64,000 bases of DNA from positions 24,733-88,732 of the forward strand of contig CAZWJE010000004.1 of the NCBI GenBank assembly GCA_964634395.1, written 5' to 3'. Origin of the DNA: an uncultured Gemmatimonas sp. (GTDB taxonomy: Bacteria; Gemmatimonadota; Gemmatimonadetes; Longimicrobiales; Longimicrobiaceae). The notes below the pieces were generated by a model. It saw nothing but the letters and a program-made list of their open reading frames with translations, made no database searches and was not told the origin of the DNA. This document shows positions 2,133 to 56,634 of the stretch, in pieces. Both the position numbers and the translations under genes were made by a program. Every line of letters begins with the position of its first letter. Position 1 is the stretch's first letter.

Positions 2133-2567
2133 TCACTCGCGGTCGTCGGCCCCTGAAGCGTCAGTTCCCCCGGCGAAGCGCCTGACTCCCATCCAGGCGA
2201 TTCCGGCCCCGACCGCGATCAGCACGAGCCCGACGATCAGCGAGGAGAGCCAGTAGCGGCCGTCGAGCAGTACTCCGAGGCCGATCACCAGGAACTCCAC
2301 GAACACGAGCACCCCAATGACGACGATAGCCGCGCCGGTCGCGCTCAGCGACGCGTCGAGCGCGAATCGCTGGAGCCTTTCGCCGACTTCGAGCCGCGCC
2401 ATCCGTACTTCCAGACGGACGAGATTCATCCCGTCGTTCACCAGGCCGCGCACGAGGCGGAGCAGGGGAAGCCGATCCGATTCCGTATCTGGAGGCTGGC
2501 TTCCGGATGGGTGAATCATCTCGTCTGAATTCGGGTTCGGTGGCTCATGGCCGCGTTTCGCGACCAC
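2133..2567 (-). CDS. Membrane protein of the putative holin-X / phage holin superfamily III-like family
   Basis: 144 aa. LVRGLVNDGMNLVRLEVRMARLE amphipathic segment followed by a long hydrophobic hairpin (AAIVVIGVLVFVEFLVIGLGVLL...LSSLIVGLVLIAVGAGIAWM). This is the typical Phage_holin_3_6-like architecture. Confidence 0.45.
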   Translation of the reverse strand: MVAKRGHEPPNPNSDEMIHPSGSQPPDTESDRLPLLRLVRGLVNDGMNLVRLEVRMARLEVGERLQRFALDASLSATGAAIVVIGVLVFVEFLVIGLGVLLDGRYWLSSLIVGLVLIAVGAGIAWMGVRRFAGGTDASGADDRE

Positions 2568-2649
2568 CGGGTCCGCCCGTTGCGGCGGTTCCCGGGGCGA
2601 AATACCTTACCCTATCTGGCCGTTACGGGGAAGAGAGGCGGAAGCTTTC

Positions 2650-3111
2650 ATGAAACGCGAATGGCACCATTCCGCGGGTGTGATCGTTTTCCGTGACGAG
2701 TCGCCCCGGTCGTATCTGCTCATGCGCTCGGCGGTCACCAAGCGCCCCGTGTGGGAGTTCCCGAAGGGCGCCCTCGAAACGGGCGAAACCGAAATCGAGG
2801 CGGCCGCACGCGAACTCGAAGAGGAAACGGGGCTCGGCTCGGGAGACTATACCCTTCTCGACGGTTTCCACGAAGAGGAGTGGTACTACTTCACGCGTCG
2901 ATCGGGTGACGACGTTCGCCTCATTCGCAAACGGGTCGCCTATTTCCTCGCCGAATGGCGCAGCGGAGAGGTCCAGGTCTCGCGGGAAGCATCGCGCCAT
3001 GAGTGGGCCGATGCCGAGACCGCCTTACGCATGATCAGATTCCCCGAGAAACGGCGGATCCTCGCCCGGGCCGAGGAATGGCTCACCCAGCGGGAAGGTC
3101 AACCGGGCTGA
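2650..3111 (+). CDS. NUDIX hydrolase
   Basis: Nudix box [23 protein letters not shown] (GX5EX7REUXEEXGU). Confidence 0.8.
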
Positions 3112-4439
3112 CCGCGCCGGTCGGAGTGGCCGGTCGCGATCGCCCGGACTTCCGCCGCGGCGATCGCGTCGCCAGCGTCCCACTCGGGCAGGCGGATCAC
3201 GAACTGGCTTCCGCCACCCAGGCGGCTCTGTACCTCGATCCGTCCCCCATGCCGCTCGGCGAGCAGCCGAGCGATCGCCAGGCCCAGGCCCGTTCCGCCC
3301 GACTGGCCGCGCGCCGCGTCGCCCCGGTAGAATCGGTCGAACACGCGCGCGAGCTCTTCGGGGGCGATCCCCACGCCGGTGTCGACCACGCGGACTTCCA
3401 CCCACCCCTGATGGTTCGCGTCGACCGTGCGTTTCGCGGTCAGCGTGACTGAACCTTCCGGTGTGAACTTGACGGCGTTCGACACCAGGTTCAGGAATAT
3501 CTGCCGGAGCTGGCCGGCGTGGCCCGCGACGACGAGCCGTTCGGAGGAGCGCAACTCGACGCGCAGATCCTTCCCCGCCGCCAGCATCTGCCCCATCTCC
3601 ACCACGTCCTCGAGCAGCGGAGTGATCTCGACGGCGTCGCGAGGCGTCGCCTGCCGGTCCTCCTCGCTTCGCGCGAGGGTGAGCAGGCCATCGACCAGGT
3701 GAAGCATCCACTCCGTTTCCTCGTTGACGTCCGCGAGGGTTTCACGGAGCTCGTCGGCCGTACGTTCCCGGGAGAGGGCGACCTGAACGCTCCCCTGGAT
3801 CGAGGTCAACGGGGTTCGCAGTTCGTGGCTGGCGTCCGCCGTGAAGCGACGAAGGGCTTCGACGGCGTGCTCGAGACGCATAAGCATGCCGTTCACCGAA
3901 TGCGCCAGGTCGCGCAGGTCCGAAGGGGCTCGCGGTTCCGGTACGCGACGGGAGAGCCCGCCAATCCCGATCTCGCGCGTGGTTTCCACGAGCCGGCGGA
4001 GTGGGTCGAGCAGGCGCTCGAGAAGCACGCCCCCGCCGAGCGCGGCGGCACCCGCGGTGAGGGGGATGAGCAAGAGGGAGATGATCAGGAACGACCGGAG
4101 CGCCCGGCCTTCCACATCGCCCGCCGGGGTTACCGCGACCGTGAAGACCTCGTTCGTCGCGAGCACCGTCTGCCGACGGAGTGATCGGACCGACTCACCT
4201 TGCGCGTTCTGATAGGTGACGAACTCCTCGGCGGTTTCCAGTCGTGGGATCCGCGGCGGGATGGCGACGTTCTCGACCGCCTGCGCCGTCTGGCGGAGCG
4301 ATTCCTCTTCGGCGGCCGCCAGCGTCCGCGAGAGGAGGAAGTAGGCGGCGGTCGCGAAGAGGCCCAGCGCCACGACCAGCACCAGCGAGTACCAGACGAG
4401 GATCTCGCGCCGGAGCGAAACACCCGAGGCGCGGTTCAT
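3099..4439 (-). CDS. Sensor histidine kinase (2 TM, HAMP, HisKA, HATPase_c)
   Basis: H-box [12 protein letters not shown], the N/G1/G2 boxes ([25 protein letters not shown]), and an N-terminal TM segment. It overlaps the response-regulator gene by 4 bp. Confidence 0.85.
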
Positions 4440-5113
4440 CCTTCCCTCTCCGACGCGCGGACGATATAGCCGACGCCGCGCACCGTCTGGATCAGGTCGC
4501 GGTCCGGCTGCAACTTGTTGCGCAGCGAGTTGATGAAGACGTCGACCACGTTGGTCCCAGGGTCGAAGCGGATCCCCCAGACGTGTTCCATCAGCGTGGC
4601 TCGGGTGAGGGGACGGTTGACGTTGCGGAGCAGGTATTCGAGGAGCGCGAACTCCTTGGGCGTCAGCGAGACGAGTTCGCCGCCGCGGCGGACTTCCCGG
4701 GTCGCGGGGTCGAGTTCGACCGTGCCCGCGCGCAGCACCGGCGCGGCCTGACCCCCCGAGCGGCGGAGCAGGGCGCGCAGCCGAGCGGTCAGTTCCGTGA
4801 AGTCGAAAGGCTTGGTGAGGTAGTCGTCCGCCCCGGCGTCGAGGCCTTCGATCTTGTCGTCGATCCGGTCACGGGCCGTGAGGAGCAGGATGGGGATCGA
4901 CTTGCCGGCTTCGCGCAGATCACGCACGAGTTCCAGGCCGCCGCGGCCGGGAAGCATGACGTCGACGACGGCGGCGTCGAAGTCCTGTTCCGAGGCGATT
5001 TCGTAGGCCGCGTCGCCATCTCCCGCGGTCACGACGGAATATCCCTCTTCGGTCAGGCCCTTGCGGAGAAACGCGGCGATTCGCTGACTGTCCTCGACGA
5101 CGAGTATTCGCAT
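4436..5113 (-). CDS. OmpR/PhoB-family response regulator (REC + winged helix)
   Basis: [16 protein letters not shown]...D53-like DVMLPGRGG...LLLTARD...KPFDFTEL, and a C-terminal trans_reg_C (RVGYIV). Confidence 0.9.
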
Positions 5114-42778: not shown

Positions 42779-45700
42779 ATGACCGAACCTTCGACCCCGA
42801 TGTCGCTTCCGAGCCCGTCCTCGCCGCGAGCCGTGCCGGACTGGCGAGAGCCATCGCCGATGATCGGCCGCGACCGGGAAATGGCGTTGGTGCGCCATCT
42901 CCTGGACGAAGCGGAGAGCGGGCGCGGCGGGATGCTGGTGATCTCCGGAGACGCCGGGGTGGGGAAGAGCCGGCTGTTGCGCGCGGCGGCGCGCGAGGCC
43001 GAACGCCTCGGCTGGAGGAGCCTGATCGGACGGGCCTATCCGGTGGAGACGGGCATCCCCTATTCGCCCTTCGCCGATGCCTTCGTACCGCTTCTCTGGA
43101 AGCTGGACGCGGAAGGGCTGGCGACGCTCACGCGGGGCAGCGAGGCGGAACTGCGATATCTCTTCCCGGCGATGGGCGGATCCTCCGTGGCGGATTCCGG
43201 ACACGATCCGGTGGAACTGAAAGCGCGCCTTCTCTGGAACTTCACGCAGTTCCTGACTCGTCTCGCGACTCGCCAACCTCTGCTTCTGATCCTCGACGAT
43301 CTGCAATGGGCGGACGCTTCATCGATCGAACTCCTTCACCTCATCGCCCGACGGATCGGCGGTTCCCGCGTCGCCGTGCTCGCGGCGTATAACCGCGAAC
43401 TGGTCGAGGATCGCGCGGACGTGATCGCGATGGAGGAATCGTTGATCGGGATCGGTGCGGCGCGCCAGTGCCCGTTGCGACCGCTCTCGCACGCGGACAC
43501 CGCCGCGCTCGTCCAGCAGGTCTTCGGTGTCGGAGAGACGACGACTCGTGAGTTCTCGGCGCTGGTCTTCGGGTGGACCCGGGGGAATCCGTTCTTCCTT
43601 GAGGAAGTGCTCAAGACGCTGGTGGATAGTGGGCGACTGCGCGAGGTGGAAGGGGCGTGGACGGGCTGGGAGATGACGGAGATCGATCTACCGTCGTCCA
43701 TACGTGACGCCGTGCGCGGAAGGTTCCGCTCTCTCAGGTCGAACGTTCGCGCGCTCGCGGACGTGCTGGCGGTCGTGGGTACGAGTGTCGGGCATGACAT
43801 CCTGCTGTCGGTGAGCGGCACCGACGAACCGGAGTTCCTGGAGGCGATCGAGGAGCTGCGTCGGTGTCGCCTGGTGGACGAGCGGCTGGAGGACGGCGTG
43901 GTCGTCTACGATTTCGTGCACCCGATGATTCGGGAGGCGCTGAACGCCGAACTCGGCCTGGCGCGAAGACGGCGGCTTCACCGTCGGGTCGCCGAAACAC
44001 TGGAGTCGTTGTGGGGCGCGGACGCGACCGGGCACGCCGACGAGCTGGCCTACCACTACGCGCGATCAGGCGAGAGGTCATTGGCCCCGAAGGCCGTGCT
44101 CTACCTCGCTGCGGCGGGTCGGGGCGCCCTTCGTCGACAGGCGAATCGGGAAGCGGCCGACTACCTGAGCGCGGCGCTGGAGCGGGTGTCGGAAGGGACA
44201 GGGGAGGCCGATGTCCAGGTCGCCGGGCTCGTCGAGGATCTGGCGCGGGCGCGACAGCGGCTCGGCGACCTGGATGGCGCGACCGAGCTCTGGCGCCGGC
44301 GGCTGGAATTCGCGGAAACCGCCGGCGACGCGTCCGCTCGAGCGCGTGTTCACCGCCGGCTGGGGCAGATCGAATCCTGGCGGGCCCGATACCCGGAGGC
44401 GCTCGAGCACTTCGACGCGGGGCTCGCGGCCGCCGAGGTGGCGGGCGACGACGGCCAGCTCGTCCGGCTCCACATCACCCGGGCGGAGTGCCTGATGGAA
44501 ACCGGGCGCGCCGATGACGCCCGCGTGGAGACGGAGGCGGCGCTCCGGCTCGGTGAACGTCTGGGCCGACGGGATCTGCTGGCGCGTGTGCATCTCGGGC
44601 TTCTGCTTCTGCACACCTGGACGGGACCGCCCGAGCGGGCGCGACACCATCAGCGACGGGCGCTGGAACTCTCCGCTTCGCGCGAAGACAGGCCACTCCG
44701 CTGTGACGTGCTTTGGGGCGCCGCCCTCCTCGGCATCGCCACGGGTGAACTTCAGGCGTCGCACGCGCACGTGGAAGCGGGGAGTCGGCTCGCGGACGAG
44801 ATCCGCTCTCCGCTCCACTGGCTGCGTATGGCCGAACTGCGGGTCGAACTCTTCGCCAGCGCGGGGGATTGGACGGATGCCGTCCAGCTCGCGAACCGGG
44901 CGATCGAGACGGCGCGCGCCCTCGATCACCGTTCGTCGCTCACGCGGCTGCTCTTCTGGCTCGGAACGATGCACTTCGGGCGAGGTGACGTCGCGCGTGG
45001 GAAGGCCGCGGTCGACGAGGCCTGGGAACTCGCGGACGCGGGGAGTGGCTCGGCGGGGCGGGACGTGCACGCGGTGGTCTCCGCGTACGCCGGCCGAGCC
45101 GGCTTCCACCTGGCCACGGGCGACTTCGAACGGGCGATCGAGGTTGCGGAGGCCGGCCTCGCCGTCGCCGACCGGACCGGGTACAGCGTATGGGCGATCA
45201 ACAGGCTCCTTCCCATGCTCGCGGAAGCTCATATGCTGCTGGGAGACCTCGATGGGGCGTCCCGGGTCGGAAGGAGGCTTCGCGCTGATGCCGAGCGGCT
45301 GGGGCACCTGCTCGGCCTTGCCTGGGCCGATGCGTGTGATGCGCTGCTCGTCTGGCTGCGCGGTGACCCCGTCGCCGGGATCGGACTTCTGCGCGCGGCG
45401 GCGAACCGCCTCGAGACGATTCCGGCCGTTCACGACGCTGCTCGGCTCCGTCGCCATCTCGCCGCCCGGCTGCGCGATTACGGTGACCGGGAAGGCGCGT
45501 TGCGCGAACTTCGGGAGATCCACGAGACGTTCGTGCGACTCGGAGCCGAACGCGAACTGGCCAAGACCCGTGAGCAGATCCGCGAACTCGGTTCCCGTCC
45601 CCCCGTTCGAGAGGCGGCGCGCGGTGCGGATGGACTCTCGATGCGTGAGGTGGAAGTCGCCCGGATGGCCGCGCGGGGGATGACGAACAAGGCGATCGGC

Positions 45701-45826
45701 CGCGCGCTGGAAATTTCACCCCGCACGGTCAGTACACATCTCTCGAAGGTGTTCGCGAAACTCGAGATCGGGTCCAGGGGAGAACTCGCCGAGGCGATGA
45801 TCGCGGAGCCGTCCTTCCTCGAGTAG
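42779..45826 (+). CDS. Large ATP-binding LuxR-family (LAL/MalT-like) transcriptional regulator
   Basis: 1015 aa. N-terminal AAA/Walker A (ISGDAGVGKSRLL), a central TPR-like region, and a C-terminal LuxR HTH (MREVEVARMAARGMTNKAIGRALEISPRTVSTHLSKVFAKL). Confidence 0.8.
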   Translation: MTEPSTPMSLPSPSSPRAVPDWREPSPMIGRDREMALVRHLLDEAESGRGGMLVISGDAGVGKSRLLRAAAREAERLGWRSLIGRAYPVETGIPYSPFADAFVPLLWKLDAEGLATLTRGSEAELRYLFPAMGGSSVADSGHDPVELKARLLWNFTQFLTRLATRQPLLLILDDLQWADASSIELLHLIARRIGGSRVAVLAAYNRELVEDRADVIAMEESLIGIGAARQCPLRPLSHADTAALVQQVFGVGETTTREFSALVFGWTRGNPFFLEEVLKTLVDSGRLREVEGAWTGWEMTEIDLPSSIRDAVRGRFRSLRSNVRALADVLAVVGTSVGHDILLSVSGTDEPEFLEAIEELRRCRLVDERLEDGVVVYDFVHPMIREALNAELGLARRRRLHRRVAETLESLWGADATGHADELAYHYARSGERSLAPKAVLYLAAAGRGALRRQANREAADYLSAALERVSEGTGEADVQVAGLVEDLARARQRLGDLDGATELWRRRLEFAETAGDASARARVHRRLGQIESWRARYPEALEHFDAGLAAAEVAGDDGQLVRLHITRAECLMETGRADDARVETEAALRLGERLGRRDLLARVHLGLLLLHTWTGPPERARHHQRRALELSASREDRPLRCDVLWGAALLGIATGELQASHAHVEAGSRLADEIRSPLHWLRMAELRVELFASAGDWTDAVQLANRAIETARALDHRSSLTRLLFWLGTMHFGRGDVARGKAAVDEAWELADAGSGSAGRDVHAVVSAYAGRAGFHLATGDFERAIEVAEAGLAVADRTGYSVWAINRLLPMLAEAHMLLGDLDGASRVGRRLRADAERLGHLLGLAWADACDALLVWLRGDPVAGIGLLRAAANRLETIPAVHDAARLRRHLAARLRDYGDREGALRELREIHETFVRLGAERELAKTREQIRELGSRPPVREAARGADGLSMREVEVARMAARGMTNKAIGRALEISPRTVSTHLSKVFAKLEIGSRGELAEAMIAEPSFLE

Positions 45827-45927
45827 CGTGAGGGCCGGAAGCCCCCTGTCGCCATCGCCAGGGTACGATGATTTCCGATGGCTCGCGGGTCGCCACGGGG
45901 GTCCCGTGGAACGGCCCCCCCCCGTTG

Positions 45928-46515
45928 TCATCGCCGGGGTATCACGCTTTCCGAAGCCGCGCCGGCCGCGAAGCGCGCTTCGCCCTTCGCCCAGCCGTAC
46001 TCCCTCAGCAGATCCGCGTAGACTCTCGCGTCGACCTCGGCGTACCGGTCGAGAATGGACTCGATCGAGAGACCGCCGGCCGCGACTCGCTCGTCGAGCC
46101 AGTCCTTGAGCCAGACGAGATGGTGCCGCTCGTCCTCGATCATGCGATAGAGGGTGGCCTGGACTCTACGGTGGGTGCCCGGCCGACGGATATGGTCCAG
46201 GAAGTGGCGGTAGACTCGTCGTTCGATCGTCTGTGTCGCGATGATGAAATGCAGGAAAGTCGGGGGCGGTCCGGCGAAGAATTGGAACCGATACTGATAG
46301 GTCTCCGGGATATGTCGGAGCTGTCCGCCGACGGCAAGGATCGTCTCGGACCAGATGTGGGCGTGCACGAGGAGATCCGCCGCGTGGCGGGTGAGATTCA
46401 CGAGCACACGCGCATCCCGCATCCGCGGCGCCAGGTCCGCGAGGATGCGTCCCCCGTGCAAGGCGGTAACGCGATAGAAATTGAGGGCCCTCAGCTCGTT
46501 CCCCGAGATCTCCAT
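45928..46515 (-). CDS. Ferritin-like / putative diiron protein (hypothetical oxygenase)
   Basis: 195 aa, all-helical composition with E/H-containing motifs (LVHAHIW, ERRVYRHF, EDERHH). The family is not firmly recognised. Overlaps the upstream reductase stop by 13 bp. Confidence 0.45.
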   Translation of the reverse strand: MEISGNELRALNFYRVTALHGGRILADLAPRMRDARVLVNLTRHAADLLVHAHIWSETILAVGGQLRHIPETYQYRFQFFAGPPPTFLHFIIATQTIERRVYRHFLDHIRRPGTHRRVQATLYRMIEDERHHLVWLKDWLDERVAAGGLSIESILDRYAEVDARVYADLLREYGWAKGEARFAAGAASESVIPRR

Positions 46516-46526
46516 GATTGACTCAT

Positions 46527-47615
46527 TCAGGCCGCGGTATCCAGTGAGGTAGTCCACGCACGCCGGGCGAGATCGGCGGCGAGCGCGCGCCAGTACATAG
46601 CCACGGGCGGGGCGCCATGGCCGAGGGCGGCCTCGGCGATTCCCGTGTGGAACCGTTTCGCGTGGGCGAGGTGAGGAACGAAGTGGCCGAGCGTACCGAT
46701 GAGCTTCGTCAGTCGCGCGTCCCCGGTTTCCTCGGCCGCGATTTCGAAGAGCCGGTAGGTCGAGAGATCGGTGAGGGCCGGCGGGGAGATCGACCGGCGG
46801 CGCCAGAGCGGGTTCTCGGACCACACCTCCCACGACCATGCGATGATCCGGTCGAGCGGCGCGGCCCCATCGCCGGCACACAGATGGACGGTGGCGCCGC
46901 GCAGATCCGGGCGGGTGGCGAGCTCCGCGATCGCGGAGGCCGCGAAGTCGGCCGGGATGACGTCGACGAGGGTATCTCCCCGACCCGGAAGCAATGGCGC
47001 GAGCCCGTCATGCAGGAGGCGCAGTATCCGGTGGATCGCGCCGTGGCGAAGGATCCGGCCCCGCTGGTCGTCGCAGACGATGGTGCTCGGACGCAGGATG
47101 ACGAAATCACGACCGCTCGCGCGGACGAGATCTTCCGCTTCCGCCTTCGACTGTTCATGGGCGTTCGCCCACCCGACCCGGGTCGGTGGATCGGTCTCCG
47201 CGATCCGCCCGGAACGGAGCCCGGCGACGAAGGCGGTGCTGACGAAGCAGATGGGCGATCCGCCGGGCGCGGTGAACTCCAGGAGACGTTCGGTCCCTCG
47301 TACGTTCACGGCGCGCGCGCGCGCCAGGTCGGCGCCGGGGTCGGTGTCGGCCGCGAGGTGAACGATCGCGGTGAAGTCCCGGCGCAGCGCGTCGCGCGTG
47401 GCGGCCGGGAACGCGGCGGCCGACGATCCCGGGTCGCCGACGATGGCGGTGACCCGGGCGGCGGGAACGCGCAGAGCCCGAGCCCGCGCCGCCCAACGTT
47501 CCGGGTCGCGGGTGAGTATGACGAGGTCCGCGCTGGGACGGTCGGTGAGAAGTCGTCGAACGACGAGACCACCGAGATGACCGGAGGCGCCGGTGACCAG
47601 GATGCGTTCGCCCAC
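46527..47615 (-). CDS. NAD-binding reductase of the thioester-reductase / male-sterility (NAD_binding_4)-like SDR family
   Basis: ILVTGASGHLGGLVVRRLL Rossmann, VHLAADTD, NVRGTERLLEF, VSTAFVAG, and an ..EQSK motif. Confidence 0.65.
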   Translation of the reverse strand: MGERILVTGASGHLGGLVVRRLLTDRPSADLVILTRDPERWAARARALRVPAARVTAIVGDPGSSAAAFPAATRDALRRDFTAIVHLAADTDPGADLARARAVNVRGTERLLEFTAPGGSPICFVSTAFVAGLRSGRIAETDPPTRVGWANAHEQSKAEAEDLVRASGRDFVILRPSTIVCDDQRGRILRHGAIHRILRLLHDGLAPLLPGRGDTLVDVIPADFAASAIAELATRPDLRGATVHLCAGDGAAPLDRIIAWSWEVWSENPLWRRRSISPPALTDLSTYRLFEIAAEETGDARLTKLIGTLGHFVPHLAHAKRFHTGIAEAALGHGAPPVAMYWRALAADLARRAWTTSLDTAA

Positions 47616-48578
47616 TCAGGCCTCCATCGCCATCGCCGTCCAGTGGGCACCGTAACCATATCCGAAGAGGAGGACTCTCTCGCCGGTCCGGACGGAGCCA
47701 CTGTCGAGCGCGTCACGCAGGTTGATGAAGTTGTCGGACGGGGTATGGCCGTCGCGCGGTACGTTCCGGGACCACAGCCGTGCCTTTCGCATTCCCGTCA
47801 GCACGAGGAGGATCTCCCAGCTCCGCAGGTTGACGTTGTGGGGGATGACCCAGTCCACGTCAGAGGCATTCCATCCGGCGTCGTCGAGGGTCTTTTGGAT
47901 GACCGTCCGGGCGGTCGGGAAGTAGGCGCCGAGCATTTCGTCGCGGAGCCGGTCCGCCTCCCAGAAGAAGCCCTTGGTCACATGACGCGACGCCACGATG
48001 CGGTTCCGGCCCGAATCGCGGCCGACGAGGATCGAGCAGGCCGCGTCCGAAGTACAGGTGAAGATCACCTCGCGCGCCGCGTCCGTGGGCATGAAGTCGA
48101 CGCTGACGCAGAGCGCATAGTCGATGCCTTCGGCGAGACAGAGCGCGCGGGCGACACGGATCGCGCCGAACAGGCTCGTCCCGCCGAGTTGATCGACGCC
48201 GATCACCGAGGCATTGCCCAATGCCAGGTCGTACTGCAGCCGGGTGGCGGGGAAGCGGAACCGGTCCACCGTACGCAGGGCGCCGCGTCCTGTCTCGGTC
48301 GCGGAGCCGGGCAGGAACGCCGTCTCCCCGGCCGCTCCCGAGTAGAGCACGAGCCCGACCTCCGCCGGGTTGAGCCCTGATTCGTCAAGGAGCGCGCGGG
48401 CCGAGGACAGACCCAACTCGTAGGGGCTCTCCTCGGCCGCGACGTAGACGCGCCCGAAGCCGGCCCGCCGCAGCAGCGCGGGTTCGCTTCGCAACTGGCC
48501 GGCGAGCGCTAGCTCCTCCACGCCTCGCGAATTGGACGGGAACGCGTACGAGACCGCGAGGATCGATATGTCCGTCAC
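47616..48578 (-). CDS. KAS-III (FabH)-like condensing enzyme/acyltransferase
   Basis: FabH-like fold (VIPHNVNLRSW, FGYGYGAHWTA C-terminus). The canonical active-site Cys position appears substituted (GGTS), which would suggest an acyltransferase-type KAS-III homolog. That is an eyeball alignment only. Confidence 0.65.
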   Translation of the reverse strand: MTDISILAVSYAFPSNSRGVEELALAGQLRSEPALLRRAGFGRVYVAAEESPYELGLSSARALLDESGLNPAEVGLVLYSGAAGETAFLPGSATETGRGALRTVDRFRFPATRLQYDLALGNASVIGVDQLGGTSLFGAIRVARALCLAEGIDYALCVSVDFMPTDAAREVIFTCTSDAACSILVGRDSGRNRIVASRHVTKGFFWEADRLRDEMLGAYFPTARTVIQKTLDDAGWNASDVDWVIPHNVNLRSWEILLVLTGMRKARLWSRNVPRDGHTPSDNFINLRDALDSGSVRTGERVLLFGYGYGAHWTAMAMEA

Positions 48579-49264
48579 GACTGGCCTCGCTCGATCCAGA
48601 CGACCGCCAGGATATGCTCGGGCCAGGGGCTCACCGTGTACCCGCCCGCGGCGAAGCGGACGCCGTCGAGAATCGCGCCACGCAGCGTGCCATCGTCATC
48701 GAAGGTCAGCTCCAGCGCGGTGCACGGATGCGGTTCGTTGCGTCCGAGCGCCTTCCACGTCGCCTCCTTGAGTGCCCAGAGCATCCGACGCTCGGGTACC
48801 TCCTGGCGTTGTTCCGCCAGGGTGAGGAAGTAGCGGACCCGATCAGAGGGAAAGGGCTTCGAGGTGACGATCTCCACACCCACGCGACGTCCATTGGGGG
48901 ATGGAGGCAAGGATACCGTCTCGGCGCGTCGCGGAGGAAACGGAATGGGGAGCGCCGAACGGATTTCGCGGGGGCTCGTCTGTCGTCGCGGTGCCGCGAT
49001 CACCGGCAGAGTCGGCATCGGCGGCGCCATTGCGGTCTGGCGATCAGGGGCGAACCGATTGAGCGCGAACTGGCGCGCCCGCCATTCGCCGGTCCGCCGC
49101 TCGTCGGGTTCAAAGGCGAGGACGCGGACCTTCCTCGGCGCGCCGAGAATTTCCACCGTTGGGTTCGTCGGGTCCGTCGGGTCCGTCGGGTCCGTCGGGT
49201 TCCGCCGCGCGATCTCGGTCGTCCGCTCGGCGCCTGGCTCGGTCCGGGCTTCTTCGATTGACAT
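48575..49264 (-). CDS. 4'-phosphopantetheinyl transferase (Sfp/EntD-type) with N-terminal PTD repeats
   Basis: W..KEA..KA.G motif (WALKEATWKALG) and a GVEIV region. The N-terminus encodes PTDPTDPTDPTN from a 9-bp tandem repeat. Confidence 0.55.
   Translation of the reverse strand: MSIEEARTEPGAERTTEIARRNPTDPTDPTDPTNPTVEILGAPRKVRVLAFEPDERRTGEWRARQFALNRFAPDRQTAMAPPMPTLPVIAAPRRQTSPREIRSALPIPFPPRRAETVSLPPSPNGRRVGVEIVTSKPFPSDRVRYFLTLAEQRQEVPERRMLWALKEATWKALGRNEPHPCTALELTFDDDGTLRGAILDGVRFAAGGYTVSPWPEHILAVVWIERGQS
49162..49197. repeat. 4 x 9-bp tandem repeat (gtccgtcgg) inside the PPTase N-terminal coding region
   Basis: gttcgtcgg gtccgtcgg gtccgtcgg gtccgtcgg encodes (PTD)3PTN on the minus strand. 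Confidence 0.8.
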
Positions 49265-49369
49265 CGGGTCGCTCCCGTTTCGCGTTCGGGTTTCGAGCCG
49301 TCATTCCACCTTCATACACGCTCCGTCCGATCGTTCAGTGAAAGAGTACGGCCGCGGATCCGCCGGCGG

Positions 49370-49410
49370 CATACGACGTATGGCGTAGTCACCACACCCG
49401 TATGACGTAC
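49370..49410. promoter_or_regulatory. Pair of related palindromic sites (CATACGACGTATG; CCGTATGACGTAC) in the divergent intergenic region between the PPTase operon and ORF 49510
   Basis: CATACG-A-CGTATG at 49370-49382 is a perfect palindrome. A related half-site pair sits at 49398-49410. Confidence 0.3.
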
Positions 49411-49509
49411 CCGCCGCGCCTGTCCGCCTGAGCCGCGCCCGGCTACGTTTGTCGCGGGCGATACGCACGCAAACTTCGCGCGCCGCTATCGGCGCTCGCC
49501 GCGCGATTC

Positions 49510-49941
49510 ATGTCAGAGACCGACCTCACACCTTCCCAGCAGGCGATACTCCGACGATTGCCGGAAACGTTCCCGCCGGATCGGATCGACCGGCTGTGGA
49601 TCTTTCCCCCACACGTTGCCGCGGGACGGGAATCGGGGTTCGTCGTCATCTCCCTGCTCGATTCCGAGCCCGACGATCCGGAACGGGCGATGACGCACCG
49701 AACCCTCTTCACCTATCGATATGAGACGCATCCAGTGAAGGGCGGGATGCGTCGCGACGAGCGAGTCACGGAGGAGGGAAGCGCTCCGGTCGAGCGGATC
49801 GATCGCGTGATCGCCGGCGTGCTCGCCCGTTCCGCCGCCAACGCGGTCGAGCCGATTTCGGAGGCGCTGGGCGGAGACGAGTCACGATGGTCCGCGTTCC
49901 TCGACCGCTTCGGCCTCTCGGTCACCACCACCGAAACTTGA
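49510..49941 (+). CDS. Hypothetical protein (143 aa)
   Basis: Clean ORF with reasonable composition and no recognised motif. Confidence 0.4.
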   Translation: MSETDLTPSQQAILRRLPETFPPDRIDRLWIFPPHVAAGRESGFVVISLLDSEPDDPERAMTHRTLFTYRYETHPVKGGMRRDERVTEEGSAPVERIDRVIAGVLARSAANAVEPISEALGGDESRWSAFLDRFGLSVTTTET

Positions 49942-50049: not shown

Positions 50050-50535
50050 ATGTCGCCCTACATTCAGCTCTTCCGTCGCTACCTTCGGGAGCAGGGACTA
50101 CCGGTGACACCCCAGCGCGAGGCGGTCGCGGATGTCATCTTCAACTCACAGGGCCACCTCTCGGTCGAGGACATCGAGAAAGCGCTGCGCAGTACCGGCG
50201 AGCGGATCGGCAAGGCGACGATCTATCGGACGCTCGAGATTCTCGTACGCAGCGGCCTCGTCGAAGAGCACGACTTCGGTGAGGGCTTCAAGCGCTACGA
50301 GCATCTCTTCGGACAGACTCCGGTCCACGAACACCTGATCTGTGTCAACTGTCACGAGGTGGTGGAGTTCCAGAGCCCGGAAGCGGTGCGGGTCCAGGAG
50401 CTTACCGCTCGGGCTCATGGATTCATTCCCGTCCGCCACCGGCTGGATGTCTATGGTCTCTGCGGCAACTGCCAGGCGGAGGGCGTCGTGCTGCCCGACG
50501 AAGGGTTGACCTGTCCGGTCGAACTCCTGGCGTAG
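50050..50535 (+). CDS. fur: Ferric uptake regulator family protein
   Basis: LREQGLPVTPQREAVADVIF...HLSVEDIE...IGKATIYRTLEILV (wHTH), metal sites HEHLICVNCHEV and CGNC. GGAAGGA sits 8 nt upstream of the ATG. Confidence 0.85.
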   Translation: MSPYIQLFRRYLREQGLPVTPQREAVADVIFNSQGHLSVEDIEKALRSTGERIGKATIYRTLEILVRSGLVEEHDFGEGFKRYEHLFGQTPVHEHLICVNCHEVVEFQSPEAVRVQELTARAHGFIPVRHRLDVYGLCGNCQAEGVVLPDEGLTCPVELLA

Positions 50536-50687: not shown

Positions 50688-51089
50688 TCAGGAGGCTTTC
50701 CTGACCGCCGTCGCGTTCGTCATGTACATGCCCTGCGCGACATCGATCCCGGCGGTGAGATTCTCCCCTTGCGGCGTGAGCTTCACGGTGATCGGCGCGC
50801 TCTGCCCCTCGATGTCCAGGACGTAGTTGAGCGTCAGCGACTCGTCGGCCCGCGTGACCGAGGTGGCCCGCGAGGTACTCCCCATGGCGCTCATATCGGC
50901 GGCCACCTGGCCGTCCACGTCGAGAATGGTCAGCTCCACCGGCGTGCCTTCCACGTTCATCGTCCAGGAGCCCATGAACTCCGCGGCGTCCGAGACCGGG
51001 ACGGTCTGCGCGGTGGCCCCGGAAAGAGCCGCCACGAAAGTGGCGAAGAATACGATCGCCAGGATGGAAACGTTCTTCGGGATCGACAT
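50688..51089 (-). CDS. Secreted hypothetical protein (signal peptide)
   Basis: MSIPKNVSILAIVFFATFVAALSGATAQ signal peptide. 133 aa. Confidence 0.45.
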   Translation of the reverse strand: MSIPKNVSILAIVFFATFVAALSGATAQTVPVSDAAEFMGSWTMNVEGTPVELTILDVDGQVAADMSAMGSTSRATSVTRADESLTLNYVLDIEGQSAPITVKLTPQGENLTAGIDVAQGMYMTNATAVRKAS

Positions 51090-54015: not shown

Positions 54016-56634
54016 GTGAACGGATGCCAGGCCGGGTGGAGGACGGGGCGGTTTTGGGGAAGGATCTCGACACTCCTCATCGCGGCGACGATGGGCATGA
54101 CGGATTGCGTCGCGCTCGCCGCGCAGAGGCCGGTGGGGGACTCGGTGGTCGTGGTCGCGGGGGAGCGATACGCGGCGGGACGGGTGAAACGACTCCTGCT
54201 CGGTAACGGATACCGGGACCTCTGGGTTACGCCGATTCGTGTACCGGTGCTCTGGCCCGACACGGCGGCGGGGGGTCTCACCATCCTGCGTGAGGGTGGT
54301 GGCGAGCAGACGGTGTCACTGCTCTTCCTGGGGGCGGACAGCGTCGAGTACTTCTTCCGGTCCGTCGACAAGAGGCAGGGAAGCACCCTTCCGGAGGATC
54401 TTCGGGGGACGGTGATCGCGGACATCGTCCAGGATCTGGTGTCGGCGAAGCATCCGGGAAGCGCGATGGTGGCCGGGGCGCTCCTGGACGCGGCGGGAGT
54501 GCGGCATCCGGGTCCGCGGCTCGCGGTCATGGCGGACCATCCGCTGCTCGGAGAACATCGGAGCACTTTCGCGGGGCGTCTCGGGATGTTCGAGGAGCGT
54601 CCCGAGGAAGTGGCGGGATCCGCCAGCTCGTTTCGTGACTATCCTCGGGTGATCGGAACGGAACGGCTCTTCGAACGACTGGACGAGTCCGTCCTGGACC
54701 GGGTCGATGACCGCGCCTACCTGGCCGCGCGGTTGATGGACTTGCTCCTCGGCGACTGGGATCGTCACCCCGATCAGTGGCGCTGGGGTCAGCGGGACCG
54801 CGCGGGCGTCCGTGGTTGGGTCCCCATCCCCCGCGACCGGGACAACGCGTTCTCCCATGTGGATGGGCTCGTCGGATACGTGGGGAACCGCTTTCTGCCG
54901 ACGATCGTGCGGTATGAGGCTGAATACCCGGATCTGTACGCGCTCGTCCACGGGGCGCAATCGATCGATCGGAGGATCCTGACCTCGATTCCACGCGAGA
55001 CGTGGGTGGAGGTCGCGGTCGAATTGCGGGACCGGCTCACCGACGAAGTGATCGACGACGCGGTCCGACGGCTTCCCGACGATTGGGAGACAGTCAACGG
55101 GGAATCGCTCGCCGCGAAGCTGCGCGCCCGAAGAGACGCGCTCCCCCTGGTCGCCGCCCGCGTGTACGAGATGATGGCGAGCGAGGTCGAGGTGCGCGGC
55201 ACCGATGGCGCCGACGAGGCACTGATCGAGCGGATGCCGGATGGGTCGGTCCACGTCCGCCTCGCCGCGCTGGAGCGAGGCGCGGAAGTCTACTACGACA
55301 GGGTCTTCCATCCGACGGACACGCGCGAGGTGCGGGTCGATCTGGGAGCGGGTAACGACCGTGCCTTCGTGACCGGCGAGGGAGGCGAGATCACCATCCG
55401 GGTGATCGGAGGTTCGGGAGACGATCATCTGGAGGACCGGTCGCTCACGCCGGACCGGGCACTCACCGCGCTCTACGATCACGAAGGGGCGAACGCGCTG
55501 GTCGGCTCGCCCGGCGGGGACACGGTGATCGACGAGCGGGAGCCTCCGTCACGCCGCGCTCATGAACCGGTGTTCGAGGACAACGCGCCGCCCGCGCGGG
55601 ACTGGGGGATCGAAGCGTCACTGGTGACGCCGCGGCTGGGCTGGCGGAGCGAAATCGGGCCGGTGTTGGGTCTCGGCCCACGCTGGGGTCGTTTCGGTTT
55701 CCGCCGTCACCTCTACGCGGAGATGTTCAGTGTGGCGGCGCTCTACGCACCGTTCCACAACCGTATCGGCGTCGAGGCGGAGATGCGGTTCCCACGCGCG
55801 AGGATCGGTGACGAGATCACTATCTCGGCGCTCGGGTCGGGAATCAACGTGACCCGTTTCCACGGGTTCGGGAACGATACACCGTCGATCGATGATACGG
55901 ACGACTATCTGGTGTGGTCGACGGATTACGAAGTGGCGGCGGCGTTCATCGAGCGAGCGGACTACGGGTTCGAGGCCTCGATCGGGCCTGTGGTGCGCCA
56001 TCTCGAACCGGACGTGGTGGCGGGTTCACCGGCGTCGAGCGGGACGGTTCCCGGCGGCCGCCCCTACGGCGTCGGCGGTCTGCGCGGATCACTTGGCGTA
56101 GGCGAGCGGGACTCGTCCGGCTACCCGAGACGTGGCTTTCTCCTGCGGTTGACCGCCGACGGATACCCCGCCACCTGGGGACAGGTGGACGACGGGTTCG
56201 TGCGCGGCTCGATCGCCGGCGTTGGCTATATCCCCCTGCCGACCGGGCTCGATCCCACCCTCGCGTTTCGCTTCGGAGCGGCGCGGACGCAGCGCGGCGC
56301 GCCCTTCCAGTTCGCTCCCGCGATCGGTGGCGCCTCGACGTTGCGGGGCTTTCGCACCCGACGATACACTGGCGACGTGGCCCTCAACTGGAGCGCGGAA
56401 CTGCGGGCGCGGCTTCTGCGGGGCAACCTCCGCCTCGTCCGGGGCGAGATCGGGGCGATCGCGCTCATCGACGCCGGGCGGGTTCTCGTATCGGGTGAGG
56501 ATTCGGGAGGCTGGCACTACGGGACGGGCGGCGGCCTCTGGTTCGGAATGCTCGACCGGTCGCTGACCGCGCACGTCGTTTATGCGCACGGGGAGAAGGG
56601 CGGTTTGTACGCGGGGTTGGGGATGCCGTTCTGA
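54016..56634 (+). CDS. Large secreted/outer-membrane protein (872 aa) with C-terminal beta-barrel-like (Omp85/surface-antigen-like) region
   Basis: N-terminal signal-like segment. Central LGDWDRHPDQWRW motif region. The C-terminal ~300 aa are Gly/aromatic-rich alternating beta-strand pattern ending in GLGMPF. Confidence 0.45.
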   Translation: MNGCQAGWRTGRFWGRISTLLIAATMGMTDCVALAAQRPVGDSVVVVAGERYAAGRVKRLLLGNGYRDLWVTPIRVPVLWPDTAAGGLTILREGGGEQTVSLLFLGADSVEYFFRSVDKRQGSTLPEDLRGTVIADIVQDLVSAKHPGSAMVAGALLDAAGVRHPGPRLAVMADHPLLGEHRSTFAGRLGMFEERPEEVAGSASSFRDYPRVIGTERLFERLDESVLDRVDDRAYLAARLMDLLLGDWDRHPDQWRWGQRDRAGVRGWVPIPRDRDNAFSHVDGLVGYVGNRFLPTIVRYEAEYPDLYALVHGAQSIDRRILTSIPRETWVEVAVELRDRLTDEVIDDAVRRLPDDWETVNGESLAAKLRARRDALPLVAARVYEMMASEVEVRGTDGADEALIERMPDGSVHVRLAALERGAEVYYDRVFHPTDTREVRVDLGAGNDRAFVTGEGGEITIRVIGGSGDDHLEDRSLTPDRALTALYDHEGANALVGSPGGDTVIDEREPPSRRAHEPVFEDNAPPARDWGIEASLVTPRLGWRSEIGPVLGLGPRWGRFGFRRHLYAEMFSVAALYAPFHNRIGVEAEMRFPRARIGDEITISALGSGINVTRFHGFGNDTPSIDDTDDYLVWSTDYEVAAAFIERADYGFEASIGPVVRHLEPDVVAGSPASSGTVPGGRPYGVGGLRGSLGVGERDSSGYPRRGFLLRLTADGYPATWGQVDDGFVRGSIAGVGYIPLPTGLDPTLAFRFGAARTQRGAPFQFAPAIGGASTLRGFRTRRYTGDVALNWSAELRARLLRGNLRLVRGEIGAIALIDAGRVLVSGEDSGGWHYGTGGGLWFGMLDRSLTAHVVYAHGEKGGLYAGLGMPF

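Follow-up and report, generated by a model that had tools for sequence, protein, structure and literature searches.

The locus studied here raises the question of whether four closely packed genes beside a LAL-type regulator gene form an active cluster for a lipid-derived product, as a preliminary description made from the sequence alone had proposed. The genes lie in a stretch of 64,000 nt from an uncultured Gemmatimonas sp., which was analysed at its full length and is called the window below. On balance, we think it rather probable that they are the reduced remnant of a larger Gemmatimonadota cluster, catalytically disabled and kept for a non-canonical role. An ORF check of the window found all four minus-strand ORFs where the preliminary description had placed them, and they encode, in the direction of transcription, a PPTase-like, a KAS-III-like, a thioester-reductase-like and a ferritin-like protein; these family assignments proved correct by Pfam and NCBIfam profiles and by a structure model. 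The junctions bear out the operon-like packing: the PPTase-like and KAS-like genes overlap by 4 nt (GTGA) and the KAS-like and reductase genes abut directly with no gap, as had been described, while a 13-nt overlap that had also been reported was not seen, the reductase and ferritin-like genes being separated by an 11-nt spacer. In-frame GC3 is 0.79–0.86 in all four genes, similar to that of neighbouring housekeeping genes. Long spurious ORFs on the opposite strand are frequent in the window.

The four genes are orthologous, by position, to genes 1, 2, 3 and 7 of an uncharacterised Gemmatimonadota cluster, whose full order is PPTase, KASIII (Cys-His-His), reductase, carrier protein, amino-acid:carrier-protein ligase, ferritin-like 239 and ferritin-like 179, followed by tailoring and MMPL export genes and accompanied by a LAL gene. 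Two loci, L004 (GCA_041483735.1 JBGPGH010000015) and L013 (JGI Ga0643531_0000144), served as full examples. The window shares with the full cluster the gene order and the LAL regulator; its proteins are 39–52% identical to those of L004, and against L013 the KAS-like, reductase and ferritin-like proteins reach 50–64% and the PPTase-like protein 37%. The chromosomal context SpeA-LAL-[cluster]-H143-FUR-BipA is also common to L013 and the window. In contrast to the full cluster, the window has no carrier protein, amino-acid:carrier-protein ligase, 239-aa ferritin-like protein or 161-aa protein, no ICMT or DUF3419/GNAT/rSAM/MMPL genes, and replacements of invariant residues in all four proteins. 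When the canonical cluster proteins were compared with the whole 64-kb window by tblastn, nothing beyond the four genes was found and no carrier-protein gene was detected, in agreement with the earlier remark that no ACP/PCP gene is visible near the operon. The parent-cluster ligase, which a small carrier protein follows or precedes, is clearly homologous to those of the Bll0957/Bsr0959-type amino-acid:[carrier-protein] ligase systems (PDB 3mey, 3mf1, 4h2s; E = 1.9e-38 to 3mey), scoring 186 bits with NCBIfam NF005479, below the cut-off of 357. Ligases of this type were reportedly described by Mocibob et al. in 2010 and 2013. Their biological role has been reported as unknown (PMC9437257). The window differs from such systems in having neither ligase nor carrier protein.

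A presence/absence matrix of 96 sequences indicates that carrier protein and ligase follow the reductase gene in every locus that is long enough, the exceptions being the integrase-truncated L093 and a reduced clade that includes the window. This clade, which consists of only about six lineages, all from metagenomes or MAGs, is monophyletic with L013 as its sister in NJ trees of the KAS-like and reductase proteins; its most reduced relative, L011, keeps only the KAS-like, reductase and LAL genes, so the minimal surviving set comprises these three. Deletions in the common ancestor of the clade took out the carrier protein and ligase together with the second ferritin-like protein and the tailoring and export genes, and residues on which the ancestral chemistry depended were afterwards lost from the four proteins that remained. 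The residues lost in all four proteins are invariant in 50–115 orthologues, and as a baseline for the KAS-like, reductase and ferritin-like proteins, a single canonical sequence alters about 0.1 invariant columns on average, with a maximum of 2–3. At the same sites the two subclades carry different residues (His or Trp for Tyr; Leu or Ser for Glu; Gly, Ser or the original Cys), and such unlike replacements show repeated loss.

The KAS-III-fold protein (320 aa; 47616..48578, minus strand) was assigned by ACP_syn_III_C (50.6 bits, its N-terminal half matching weakly) and by an AlphaFold model (pLDDT 83), for which Foldseek returned FabH, ChlB3, PqsC and DpsC at E of ~1e-21 and TM of ~0.75; the FabH models of NCBIfam gave 49–53 bits against cut-offs of 249–315. 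We aligned 121 sequences, namely 120 homologues and E. coli FabH. The family has a Cys-His-His triad, different from the Cys-His-Asn of FabH-type KAS III, and its Cys aligns with that of Aquifex FabH (2ebd) in a profile alignment. This nucleophile is present in 115 of the 121 sequences, and Gly at the position is confined to the window clade. The window protein reads Gly133-His247-His278, and thus the substitution suspected in the preliminary description at the FabH Cys position is real and the Cys-His-Asn triad is absent; Asn174 is in addition replaced by Thr. Of 43 canonical-invariant columns, 4 are altered and 39 kept, including His247 and His278. With FabH, ChlB3, CerJ, DpsC and PqsBC, the protein has in common the thiolase/KASIII fold and the second-position His. 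PqsB and KSbeta/CLF are precedents of Cys-less members retained as partners.

The stand-alone thioester-reductase-like extended SDR (362 aa; 46527..47615, minus strand) matches NAD_binding_4 at 111.8 bits and TIGR01746 at 92.5 bits, under the cut-off of 213. It resembles the terminal R domains of NRPS/PKS (MxaA 4u7w; TIGR01746) in the NAD_binding_4 fold, the TGxxGxxG motif (from Gly9) and the triad residues Thr127 and Lys157, all of which are kept; it differs from them in standing alone, in its sub-cut-off TIGR01746 score and in having His153 for Tyr. Among solved structures the MxaA reductase domain (4u7w, E = 5e-13) is the best match, and His153 lies opposite its Tyr, which confirms the suspected replacement of the YxxxK tyrosine. 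Tyr is found in all 71 canonical orthologues, and His or Trp in the reduced clade; 3 of 29 invariant columns are altered in the window. NmrA-type SDRs, which are Tyr-less and serve as regulators that bind NAD(P), offer a precedent for a regulatory reading.

The fourth gene (195 aa; 45928..46515, minus strand), assigned from an AlphaFold model (pLDDT 90.9) and an orthologue alignment, encodes a ferritin-like helical bundle with a disordered C-terminal extension of 16 aa; its start is the same in independent gene calls on metagenome contigs. The protein itself has no Pfam match, and its orthologues match COQ7, Rubrerythrin and Ferritin weakly. Homologues exceed 331, mostly of 179 aa and from Gemmatimonadaceae. 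The ferritin-like bundle is shared with PaaA/PaaC, ADO, MiaE and COQ7. The orthologues bear the full E/ExxH/E/ExxH set: all 51 canonical ones examined have the six metal ligands, as have 115 of the 120 metagenome homologues, deviation being seen only in the reduced clade. The window protein differs from diiron oxygenases in keeping only four of the six (H51, E98, E129 and H132); the diiron-type motifs noted earlier are therefore present in part, with Ala18 and Leu48 replacing two Glu (E18A, E48L). As many as 10 of 32 invariant columns are altered. Similarities to the diiron proteins are all weak: Foldseek gave PaaC/PaaA, Dps-like protein, bacterioferritin, ADO and MiaE as best matches with E of at least 5e-3, TM of ~0.6 and identities of 15–18%. 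PaaC, the top structural match, is a non-catalytic ferritin-like subunit. We examined ADO as an identity of the protein and rejected it, with no specific link found, its match being no better than those of PaaC, Dps and bacterioferritin and two ligands missing.

The PPTase-like protein (229 aa; 48575..49264, minus strand) was assigned from Pfam ACPS and an alignment with Sfp. The term Sfp-type PPTase applies to the C-terminal half, to which the homology is confined (about residues 124–225; Pfam ACPS matches residues 127–206 only, with 25.2 bits where the cut-off is 25); the N-terminal half is not recognisable as such, being Pro-rich with a PTD tandem repeat. This repeat, a 9-nt unit present five times at 49156..49200 (minus strand; Tandem Repeats Finder), encodes a PTDPTDPTD stretch and varies in length among strains, with an in-frame indel of 6 codons (18 nt) against strain L096. 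A search of 1.84 billion representatives gave 130 relatives, of which the 117 of at least 150 aa were aligned. H-D-E-E-K was present in 96 of these 117, and the window has P-E-V-E-K, Sfp H90/D107/E109/E151/K155 corresponding to P121/E131/V133/E167/K171 in the alignment with Sfp and the orthologues. Judged from this alignment, the protein lacks the Mg/CoA residues.

Purifying selection was found on the operon, very strong on the KAS-like gene and weaker on the reductase-, ferritin- and PPTase-like genes. In the low-divergence comparison with strain L096 (dS 0.035–0.07, about 0.05), non-synonymous changes make up 9 of a pooled 41, where 73% would be expected (P = 1.5e-11). The KAS-like gene has dN/dS 0.02 (17 synonymous, 1 non-synonymous; P = 1.8e-9) and the PPTase-like gene 0.18 (10 synonymous, 5 non-synonymous; P = 1.4e-3); in the same test the reductase gene rests on 8 substitutions (5 synonymous and 3 non-synonymous, in its N-terminal part) and the ferritin-like gene on none. 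Within-clade comparisons, all of them after the residue losses, give dN/dS of 0.06–0.35: 0.06–0.10 for the KAS-like gene inside the Gly clade and 0.085–0.10 in subclade B, 0.24–0.27 for the reductase gene, and 0.11 for the ferritin-like gene in subclade B. At longer range dS is saturated (~1 or more), and full-length homology without frameshifts persists there, the sole indel seen being in frame. The four genes are not neutral pseudogenes. The reductase and ferritin-like proteins diverge faster relative to the KAS-like protein than in canonical pairs, and the PPTase-like and ferritin-like genes are deleted in the sister lineage L011, so that part of the operon may be heading to loss.

Spelled out in full, the scheme of the preliminary description would have a PPTase that primes a carrier encoded elsewhere, a KAS-III enzyme that builds or transfers an acyl group, a reductase that yields an aldehyde and a diiron enzyme that leads to a hydrocarbon-like lipid or oxidised product, all under LAL control. 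The correct family assignments, the operon-like packing, the conserved LAL linkage, the occurrence of ADO among the structural neighbours and the selection on the genes agree with this picture; nevertheless, neither the KAS nucleophile nor the reductase Tyr is left, two of the six metal ligands and the Mg/CoA residues of a PPTase with a degenerate N-terminal half are gone, and the ADO match equals those of PaaC, Dps and bacterioferritin (TM ~0.6, E >1e-3). The parent pathway, moreover, was built on an amino-acid:carrier-protein ligase with its own carrier, both deleted here, and with the carrier module missing from the 64-kb window and key residues lost, the operon cannot make the ancestral carrier-bound product. 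We therefore regard an active cluster of this kind as highly improbable, and its characterisation as a lipid-derived product cluster does not stand with all four proteins lacking residues invariant in orthologues. It fails through these losses and not through the findings that its authors had named as refuting it, since neither a sugar-epimerase assignment nor a housekeeping fatty-acid synteny was seen for these genes. Judging from known enzyme families, aldehyde or hydrocarbon production by the operon is very unlikely. Likeness to the cyanobacterial acyl-ACP reductase and ADO pathway is limited to a superficial pairing of "reductase" and "ferritin-like" proteins; the reductase family is unlike, both window proteins are without catalytic residues, the parent pathway is aminoacyl-carrier-protein based, and profile and structure searches detected no sequence-level relationship.

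A new and unrecognised enzymatic activity would fit the purifying selection just as well; the proteins would then act without Cys and Tyr on free or CoA-bound substrates after the loss of the carrier module, for example as a His-His-dependent decarboxylase (KSQ/CLF-type ketosynthase logic) and a His-assisted dehydrogenase. Malonyl decarboxylase activity can persist in Cys-less ketosynthases, and the strong constraint on the KAS-like gene, its His247, His278 and 39 of 43 invariant columns, and the NAD(P)-binding motif, Thr127 and Lys157 of the reductase fit such a history. We nevertheless consider it unlikely, because catalytic residues are gone from all four proteins and not from one, the differing subclade replacements resemble relaxed constraint and not convergence on a new catalytic residue, no new clade-wide conserved active-site residue was found, and Gly poorly mimics the decarboxylase-activating Gln. 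Neutral decay, with pseudogenes kept open by the rarity of stop codons in high-GC genomes until eventual deletion, would account for the missing carrier protein and ligase, the loss of catalytic residues from all four proteins, the raised number of invariant-column changes (highest in the ferritin-like protein, 10/32), the acceleration of this protein and the reductase relative to the KAS-like protein, the complete deletion of two genes in L011, a LAL gene that is split in L012, and the common opposite-strand ORFs. This view is improbable in the face of dN/dS values well under 1, at low divergence (0.02 for the KAS-like gene; pooled P = 1.5e-11) as well as clade-wide after the losses, full-length homology free of frameshifts despite saturated dS, maintained in-frame GC3 and an only observed indel that is in frame; it could hold for the PPTase-like gene alone, the least constrained of the four.

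The selection on the genes and the minimal set of KAS-like, reductase and LAL genes make a non-catalytic mode the most likely one, and the retained genes, the KAS-like and reductase genes above all, probably serve in binding or regulation. According to the remnant explanation, the full cluster would charge a carrier protein of its own with an amino acid under LAL control; internal deletions in the clade ancestor removed the carrier protein, ligase, larger ferritin-like and tailoring genes, and the KAS nucleophile, reductase Tyr, two iron ligands and PPTase Mg/CoA residues were lost thereafter. The KAS-like and reductase-like proteins may then be folded pseudoenzymes, of which the first would bind an acyl-thioester-like ligand and the second NAD(P)(H); their role would be structural or regulatory, perhaps in connection with the LAL regulator. 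E. coli MalT, controlled by direct binding of MalY, Aes and MalK, gives a precedent for such regulation.

The LAL-type (STAND) regulator (1015 aa; 42779..45826, plus strand; Pfam AAA_16, TPR_12 and GerE) is like other LAL/MalT-type STAND regulators in its AAA_16 ATPase, TPR and GerE architecture, its size of ~1000 aa and its linkage to a cluster. It is intact, with Walker A GDAGVGKS, Walker B LILDD, a TPR region and a GerE helix-turn-helix read in its sequence, and shows dN/dS 0.11 against L008. The gene was placed immediately upstream of the operon in the preliminary description; it is in fact convergent, tail to tail with 101 nt between, and not 5' of the operon promoter. Its linkage is nevertheless genuine, because in many further loci of Gemmatimonadota (L004, L008, L011, L012, L013 and others) a LAL gene neighbours the orthologous cluster. 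An upstream-region alignment revealed a conserved direct repeat of two 22-nt units (TACGTC-N16-TACGYCAT..CGTCGTAT; 49371..49420, minus strand) in the intergenic stretch that separates the operon from the divergent H143-FUR genes; we propose this repeat as a candidate operator or promoter element. The window holds a single copy of the motif; of 100 shuffles, 12 contained one or more matches (mean 0.13). The window lineage and the loci L008, L010, L011 and L013 have precisely one match each, and the other loci have none. This conserved motif and the intact ATPase and helix-turn-helix motifs of the LAL regulator count toward the explanation of a retained remnant.

Positions 45928–49264 of the window hold four minus-strand open reading frames of 229, 320, 362 and 195 aa. 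The preliminary description had read them as tightly packed genes for a phosphopantetheinyl transferase (PPTase), a KAS-III-like enzyme, a thioester-reductase-like protein and a ferritin-like protein, which adjoin a LuxR-family LAL regulator and work together from an acyl-thioester through an aldehyde to a hydrocarbon or oxidised product. The packing has been confirmed: the first gene overlaps the second by 4 nt (GTGA), the stop of the second directly abuts the start of the third, and 11 nt lie between the reductase-like and ferritin-like genes. Genes called independently on metagenome contigs nearly identical to the window are the same four, with the same start of the 195-aa protein. In-frame GC3 is 0.79–0.86 in all four genes, comparable to that of the flanking BipA, FUR and LAL genes. 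The neighbourhood reads SpeA, LAL, operon, a 143-aa protein, FUR, a 133-aa protein and BipA, and a scan of 45700–49700 found no sigma-70 promoters or intrinsic terminators. The protein families and the linkage to the LAL gene have held, but the functional model has failed, because catalytic residues, the carrier protein and a ligase are gone. HMM searches likewise confirmed the family assignments, but with the PPTase-like protein at the threshold, the FabH and TIGR01746 models below their cut-offs, and the ferritin-like protein without a Pfam match.

The KAS-like protein matches ACP_syn_III_C with 50.6 bits and lies below the curated FabH cut-offs (48.8 against 292 for TIGR00747; 51.2 against 249 for NF006829). 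Its AlphaFold model (pLDDT 83.1) matches FabH, ChlB3, PqsC and DpsC with E ~1e-21 and TM ~0.75, which places the predicted structure in the thiolase/KASIII fold. Homologues (n=704) are almost entirely from Gemmatimonadota. When 120 homologues were aligned with E. coli FabH, the family triad proved to be Cys-His-His, the Cys being present in 115 of the 121 sequences and the first His in every one, and a profile alignment with Aquifex FabH confirmed the Cys column. At the nucleophile position, members of the window clade (79–100% identity) have Gly, and one relative has Ser. The suspected substitution of the catalytic Cys is thus real, the window triad being Gly133-His247-His278, and the KAS-III fold stands, but membership in FabH proper, with its intact Cys-His-Asn triad, does not.

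The reductase-like protein matches NAD_binding_4 over residues 7–229 (111.8 bits) and falls below the cut-off of TIGR01746 (92.5 against 213.35 bits). The TGxxGxxG Rossmann motif is kept, and its form VTGASGHLGG is retained throughout the reduced clade, i.e., the window lineage and the relatives with similarly shortened clusters. Of the Thr/Ser-Tyr-Lys triad, Thr127 and Lys157 are present and Tyr is replaced by His153, which lines up with the catalytic Tyr in the reductase domain of MxaA. The YxxxK motif is found in 71/71 canonical orthologues; the replacement is His in the window, L008 and L011, and Trp in L012 and L014. The earlier remark on the lost Tyr was therefore correct, and the assignment to thioester-reductase-like SDRs holds for the nucleotide-binding fold but not for the Tyr-Lys triad.

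An Sfp-type PPTase can be recognised in the C-terminal half of the 229-aa protein but not in the rest. The Pfam ACPS match covers only residues 127–206 with 25.2 bits (cut-off 25), in place of two recognisable Sfp-type halves of ~230 aa, and the N-terminal half is Pro-rich and, in the alignment, mostly unalignable except for an EWRARQ motif. A word-indexed homologue search returned only 2 proteins; when 1.84 billion representatives were searched, the matches mostly span only about residues 120–227. The Mg/CoA-binding and catalytic residues of Sfp (H90/D107/E109/E151/K155) correspond to P121/E131/V133/E167/K171, and the H-D-E-E-K set is present in 96 of the 117 relatives aligned from the latter search. 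A tblastn search of the 64-kb window found no homologue of a cognate apo carrier protein. Within the N-terminus, a 9-nt unit repeated five times (49156–49200) encodes PTDPTDPTD, and this array is shorter by an in-frame 18 nt in L096, a close strain of the window organism.

The 195-aa protein has more than 331 homologues, again almost entirely from Gemmatimonadota, and a PDB profile search gave marginal matches only. Its AlphaFold model (pLDDT 90.9) is a four-helix ferritin-like bundle and not a haem-oxygenase-like fold, the two alternatives that the preliminary description had wished to separate by structure prediction. The Foldseek matches are all ferritin-like proteins, namely PaaC/PaaA of phenylacetyl-CoA monooxygenase, Dps-like proteins, bacterioferritins, aldehyde-deformylating oxygenase (ADO) and MiaE, and all are weak (E >=5e-3, TM ~0.6). 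The diiron-type E/H motifs are borne out by the fold and by part of the ligands, but the set E/ExxH/E/ExxH is incomplete: the window has A18, L48xxH51, E98 and E129xxH132 (E18A, E48L). These six ligands are invariant in 51/51 canonical orthologues and present in 115 of 120 metagenome homologues. Elsewhere in the reduced clade, a further Glu is changed to Gln in L008, and E48S occurs in L012 and L014. An identity of this protein with ADO is not supported: neither HMM nor PDB profile searches gave a sequence match, the structural match (5ux2 and 2oc5; TM ~0.6, E ~0.03–0.04) is no better than those to other ferritin-like proteins, and the metal ligands are incomplete.

The origin of the operon became clear by comparison with relatives. 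One genome per GTDB species was scanned, which yielded 80 loci of a parent cluster; 79 carry the label Gemmatimonadota (Gemmatimonadaceae, Gemmatimonadales and Longimicrobiales, with a Gemmatimonas aurantiaca MAG among them), and the remaining one, a short contig, is labelled Methylomirabilota. The order is (PPTase)-KASIII-like-reductase, a 90-aa carrier protein, a 310-aa protein, and a 239-aa and then a 179-aa ferritin-like protein, and the cluster ends with DUF3419-GNAT-(radical SAM/SPASM)-MMPL or, alternatively, an ICMT-like methyltransferase. It occupies 3341–14294 in L004 (GCA_041483735.1) and 9372–15943 in L013 (JGI Ga0643531_0000144), and is found also in most of L018–L095. The 90-aa protein, encoded just after the reductase in canonical clusters, carries a PP-binding signature. 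The 310-aa protein is homologous to Bll0957, an amino-acid:[carrier-protein] ligase from Bradyrhizobium (E = 1.9e-38 to PDB 3mey), and scores 186 bits against NCBIfam NF005479, under the cut-off of 357. The biological role of such ligases remains unknown according to a 2022 review (PMC9437257), and the parent cluster is therefore itself uncharacterised; our literature search on gene contexts of these ligases yielded mostly DltA. The product may possibly be an exported lipo-amino compound. The ornithine-lipid (OlsHI) pathway was considered because the parent carrier protein matches NCBIfam ACP_for_OlsHI weakly (24.5 bits, cut-off 130); it was set aside, as it is a GH3-like system of planctomycetes (PMC12493201) and no other component is shared.

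When every full-cluster protein was searched against the 64-kb window by tblastn, matches were obtained only for the PPTase C-terminal half (39%), KAS (52%), the reductase (48%) and the 179-aa ferritin-like protein (51%), and none for the carrier protein, the ligase or the 239-aa ferritin-like protein, i.e., the genes that stand between the reductase and the 179-aa ferritin-like gene in full clusters. The retained genes share the SpeA/LAL/FUR/BipA context with L013, where the neighbours of the window recur except for the 133-aa gene, and where the same slot holds PPT-KAS-RED-CP-ligase-FER245-161aa-FER179-ICMT. By homology and synteny, the window operon is evidently orthologous to the ligase-containing cluster and derived from it by deletion, rather than a full member; within this uncharacterised cluster family it is a new and degenerate form. 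Only a handful of relatives have comparable layouts: L008 has the four genes of the window plus LAL; L012 and L014/L015 have KAS-RED-FER; L010 has PPT-KAS followed by the contig end; and L011, which is the same as L016, has KAS-RED-LAL only (2144–5028), a permissive tblastn search (E up to 10) finding no PPT or FER remnants there. Neighbour-joining trees of KAS and RED make the reduced lineages monophyletic with L013 as sister, which indicates one ancestral reduction. In metagenome contigs, one scan for further members gave no match, and another returned 80 loci whose KAS proteins are all at most 59% identical to that of the window and thus lie outside the clade.

The deletions were followed by loss of residues that canonical clusters keep strictly. 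Canonical-invariant columns are changed in the window at 4/43 positions of KAS, 3/29 of RED and 10/32 of FER; a left-out canonical sequence has ~0.1 such changes on average and at most 2–3. Across all four proteins, alignment demonstrates that invariant catalytic or metal-binding residues have been lost, and the different replacements at the same sites in two subclades indicate that the loss occurred repeatedly after the carrier-protein chemistry had gone.

The genes are nevertheless maintained. Every comparison inside the reduced clade post-dates the deletions. Between the window and L008, NG86 dN/dS values, which are rough because dS is ~1 or more and saturated, are 0.10 for KAS, 0.11 for LAL, 0.23 for FER, 0.27 for RED and 0.35 for PPT, with 0.07 for FUR and 0.046 for BipA (the latter measured against L007, the same organism as L008). 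In subclade B, FER has 0.11 and KAS 0.085–0.10. Since saturated values alone are unreliable, we added a low-divergence comparison with L096, which comes from a different sample (97.6% nucleotide identity, dS 0.035–0.07). KAS has 17 synonymous and 1 non-synonymous differences (dN/dS 0.02, binomial P 1.8e-9); PPT has 10 and 5 (0.18, P 1.4e-3), with one in-frame 18-nt indel in the PTD repeat; the first 169 codons of RED have 5 and 3 (0.24, P 0.05); and the pooled counts are 32 and 9 (P 1.5e-11). These counts show current purifying selection, extremely strong on KAS. The core that has survived is KAS, RED and LAL. There are signs of partial relaxation as well: where KAS is 87% identical, the identity of RED is 62% (mean of canonical pairs 74%, range 58–90) and that of FER 74% (mean 84%, range 76–96), and L011 no longer has PPT and FER.

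The losses in the four proteins, taken together with knowledge of their families, lead us to conclude that the ancestral pathway no longer works. Lacking its nucleophile, a thiolase-fold enzyme is unable to make the acyl-enzyme; loss of Tyr is expected to cost an SDR reductase its activity; with two carboxylate ligands missing, no diiron site should be assembled in a ferritin-like protein; and a PPTase that has neither Mg ligands nor a carrier protein is left without a task. The route from thioester to aldehyde to hydrocarbon proposed at the outset is accordingly very unlikely, with the KAS nucleophile, the reductase Tyr, two of the six metal ligands, the PPTase Mg ligands and any carrier protein all missing from the window. 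Neutral decay of the remnant would fit, at most, the PPTase-like and ferritin-like genes. Strong purifying selection during the dismantling, especially on the KAS-like gene, points to a selected role that is either non-catalytic or novel. The novel alternative, catalysis newly acquired by the retained proteins, is the main rival: it would account for the selection, and would have to proceed with the canonical catalytic residues replaced. Our preferred reading, a speculative one, is that the retained proteins would have a non-catalytic binding or regulatory function, possibly exerted on the LAL regulator.

A more specific form of this non-catalytic reading, which we hold to be rather improbable as it stands, is that an ex-biosynthetic cluster has turned into a signalling or regulatory device, in which co-transcribed pseudoenzymes would have a thioester-like compound and NAD(P)(H) as ligands and would modulate the LAL/STAND regulator; the KAS-like and reductase-like proteins would survive throughout, and the ferritin-like and PPTase-like proteins in some lineages. 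The preferred, broader reading has precedents in Cys-less PqsB and KSbeta, in NmrA-type SDRs without Tyr, in metal-free PaaC and in MalT, which is under the control of enzymes. The device would resemble two of these in particular, the NmrA-type SDR sensors and MalT as controlled by MalY, Aes and MalK. A pseudoenzyme operon is an intriguing possibility and, if the device exists, every "enzyme" in it would be catalytically dead yet selectively maintained.

These results carry a warning for genome mining, because a PPTase, a KS, a reductase, a diiron protein and a LAL regulator would pass as a candidate cluster by domain content alone, and it was residue-level and comparative checks that showed this operon to be incapable of carrier-protein chemistry. 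The relatives form a dismantling series, from the full cluster through deletion of the carrier-protein, ligase and tailoring genes and repeated loss of catalytic residues to the loss of two more genes. The comparison has also exposed a parent cluster that is widespread in Gemmatimonadota and built on an amino-acid:[carrier-protein] ligase, and its study could reveal the biological role of these ligases.

The regulator itself (42779–45826, plus strand, convergent with the operon) is a 1015-aa protein with AAA_16 (105 bits), TPR_12 (38.5) and GerE (60.6) matches in this order and intact Walker A (GDAGVGKS) and Walker B (LILDD) motifs, and a LAL gene often adjoins orthologous clusters on the opposite strand, in agreement with the linkage noted from the start. 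In L012 (2655–5739), the LAL gene adjoining the reduced cluster is split into two overlapping open reading frames (439 and 595 aa), either a frameshift pseudogene or a MAG assembly error. On its other side, the operon is separated by a 245-nt intergenic region from the divergent genes for the 143-aa protein, which has no family match (49510–49941, plus), and the FUR-family regulator (50050–50535, plus); the secreted-looking 133-aa protein follows at 50688–51089 (minus). Since the 143-aa and FUR genes keep their place beside the cluster in the window/L013 lineage alone, we regard them as lineage neighbours; FUR, absent from other canonical loci, was rejected as a cluster component. The conserved element of the intergenic region is a GC-rich direct repeat, and no AT-rich Fur-type palindrome was seen there by eye. 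This 22-nt direct repeat lies at 49377–49420, within the element that alignment of upstream regions places at 49371–49420 on the minus strand (CGTATGRCGTA..., or TACGTC-N16-TACGYCAT..CGTCGTAT when read on the opposite strand). Every locus of the window lineage, L008, L010, L011 and L013 has the element exactly once, and other loci lack it, which would fit an operator or promoter that is being maintained; the element is a candidate operator for either the operon or the 143-aa–FUR genes.

Several minor observations were made along the way. A 37-nt direct repeat (45842–45878 and 45918–45954; 78% identity, spacing 76) lies where the LAL and ferritin-like genes converge, across their 3' ends; its second copy encodes part of a disordered 16-aa C-terminal extension beyond the 179-aa canonical form, and the repeat may be the scar of a deletion that removed a downstream ICMT gene. 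To the eye, the DNA that flanks the three genes kept in L011/L016 looks poorer in GC than the window, and of all pairs the one with this locus has the highest synonymous divergence. In L093 (9363–12731 of the Longimicrobiales chromosome OZ252109.1), a cluster has been destroyed independently: the PPTase is intact, KAS has kept its Cys but carries a frameshift close to the C-terminus, and an integrase gene on the opposite strand cuts off the reductase after ~150 codons. An 872-aa open reading frame at 54016–56634 (plus) of the window has no Pfam match, and related contigs have genes of 834–873 aa beyond BipA, the one in L010 with a weak Omp85 match.
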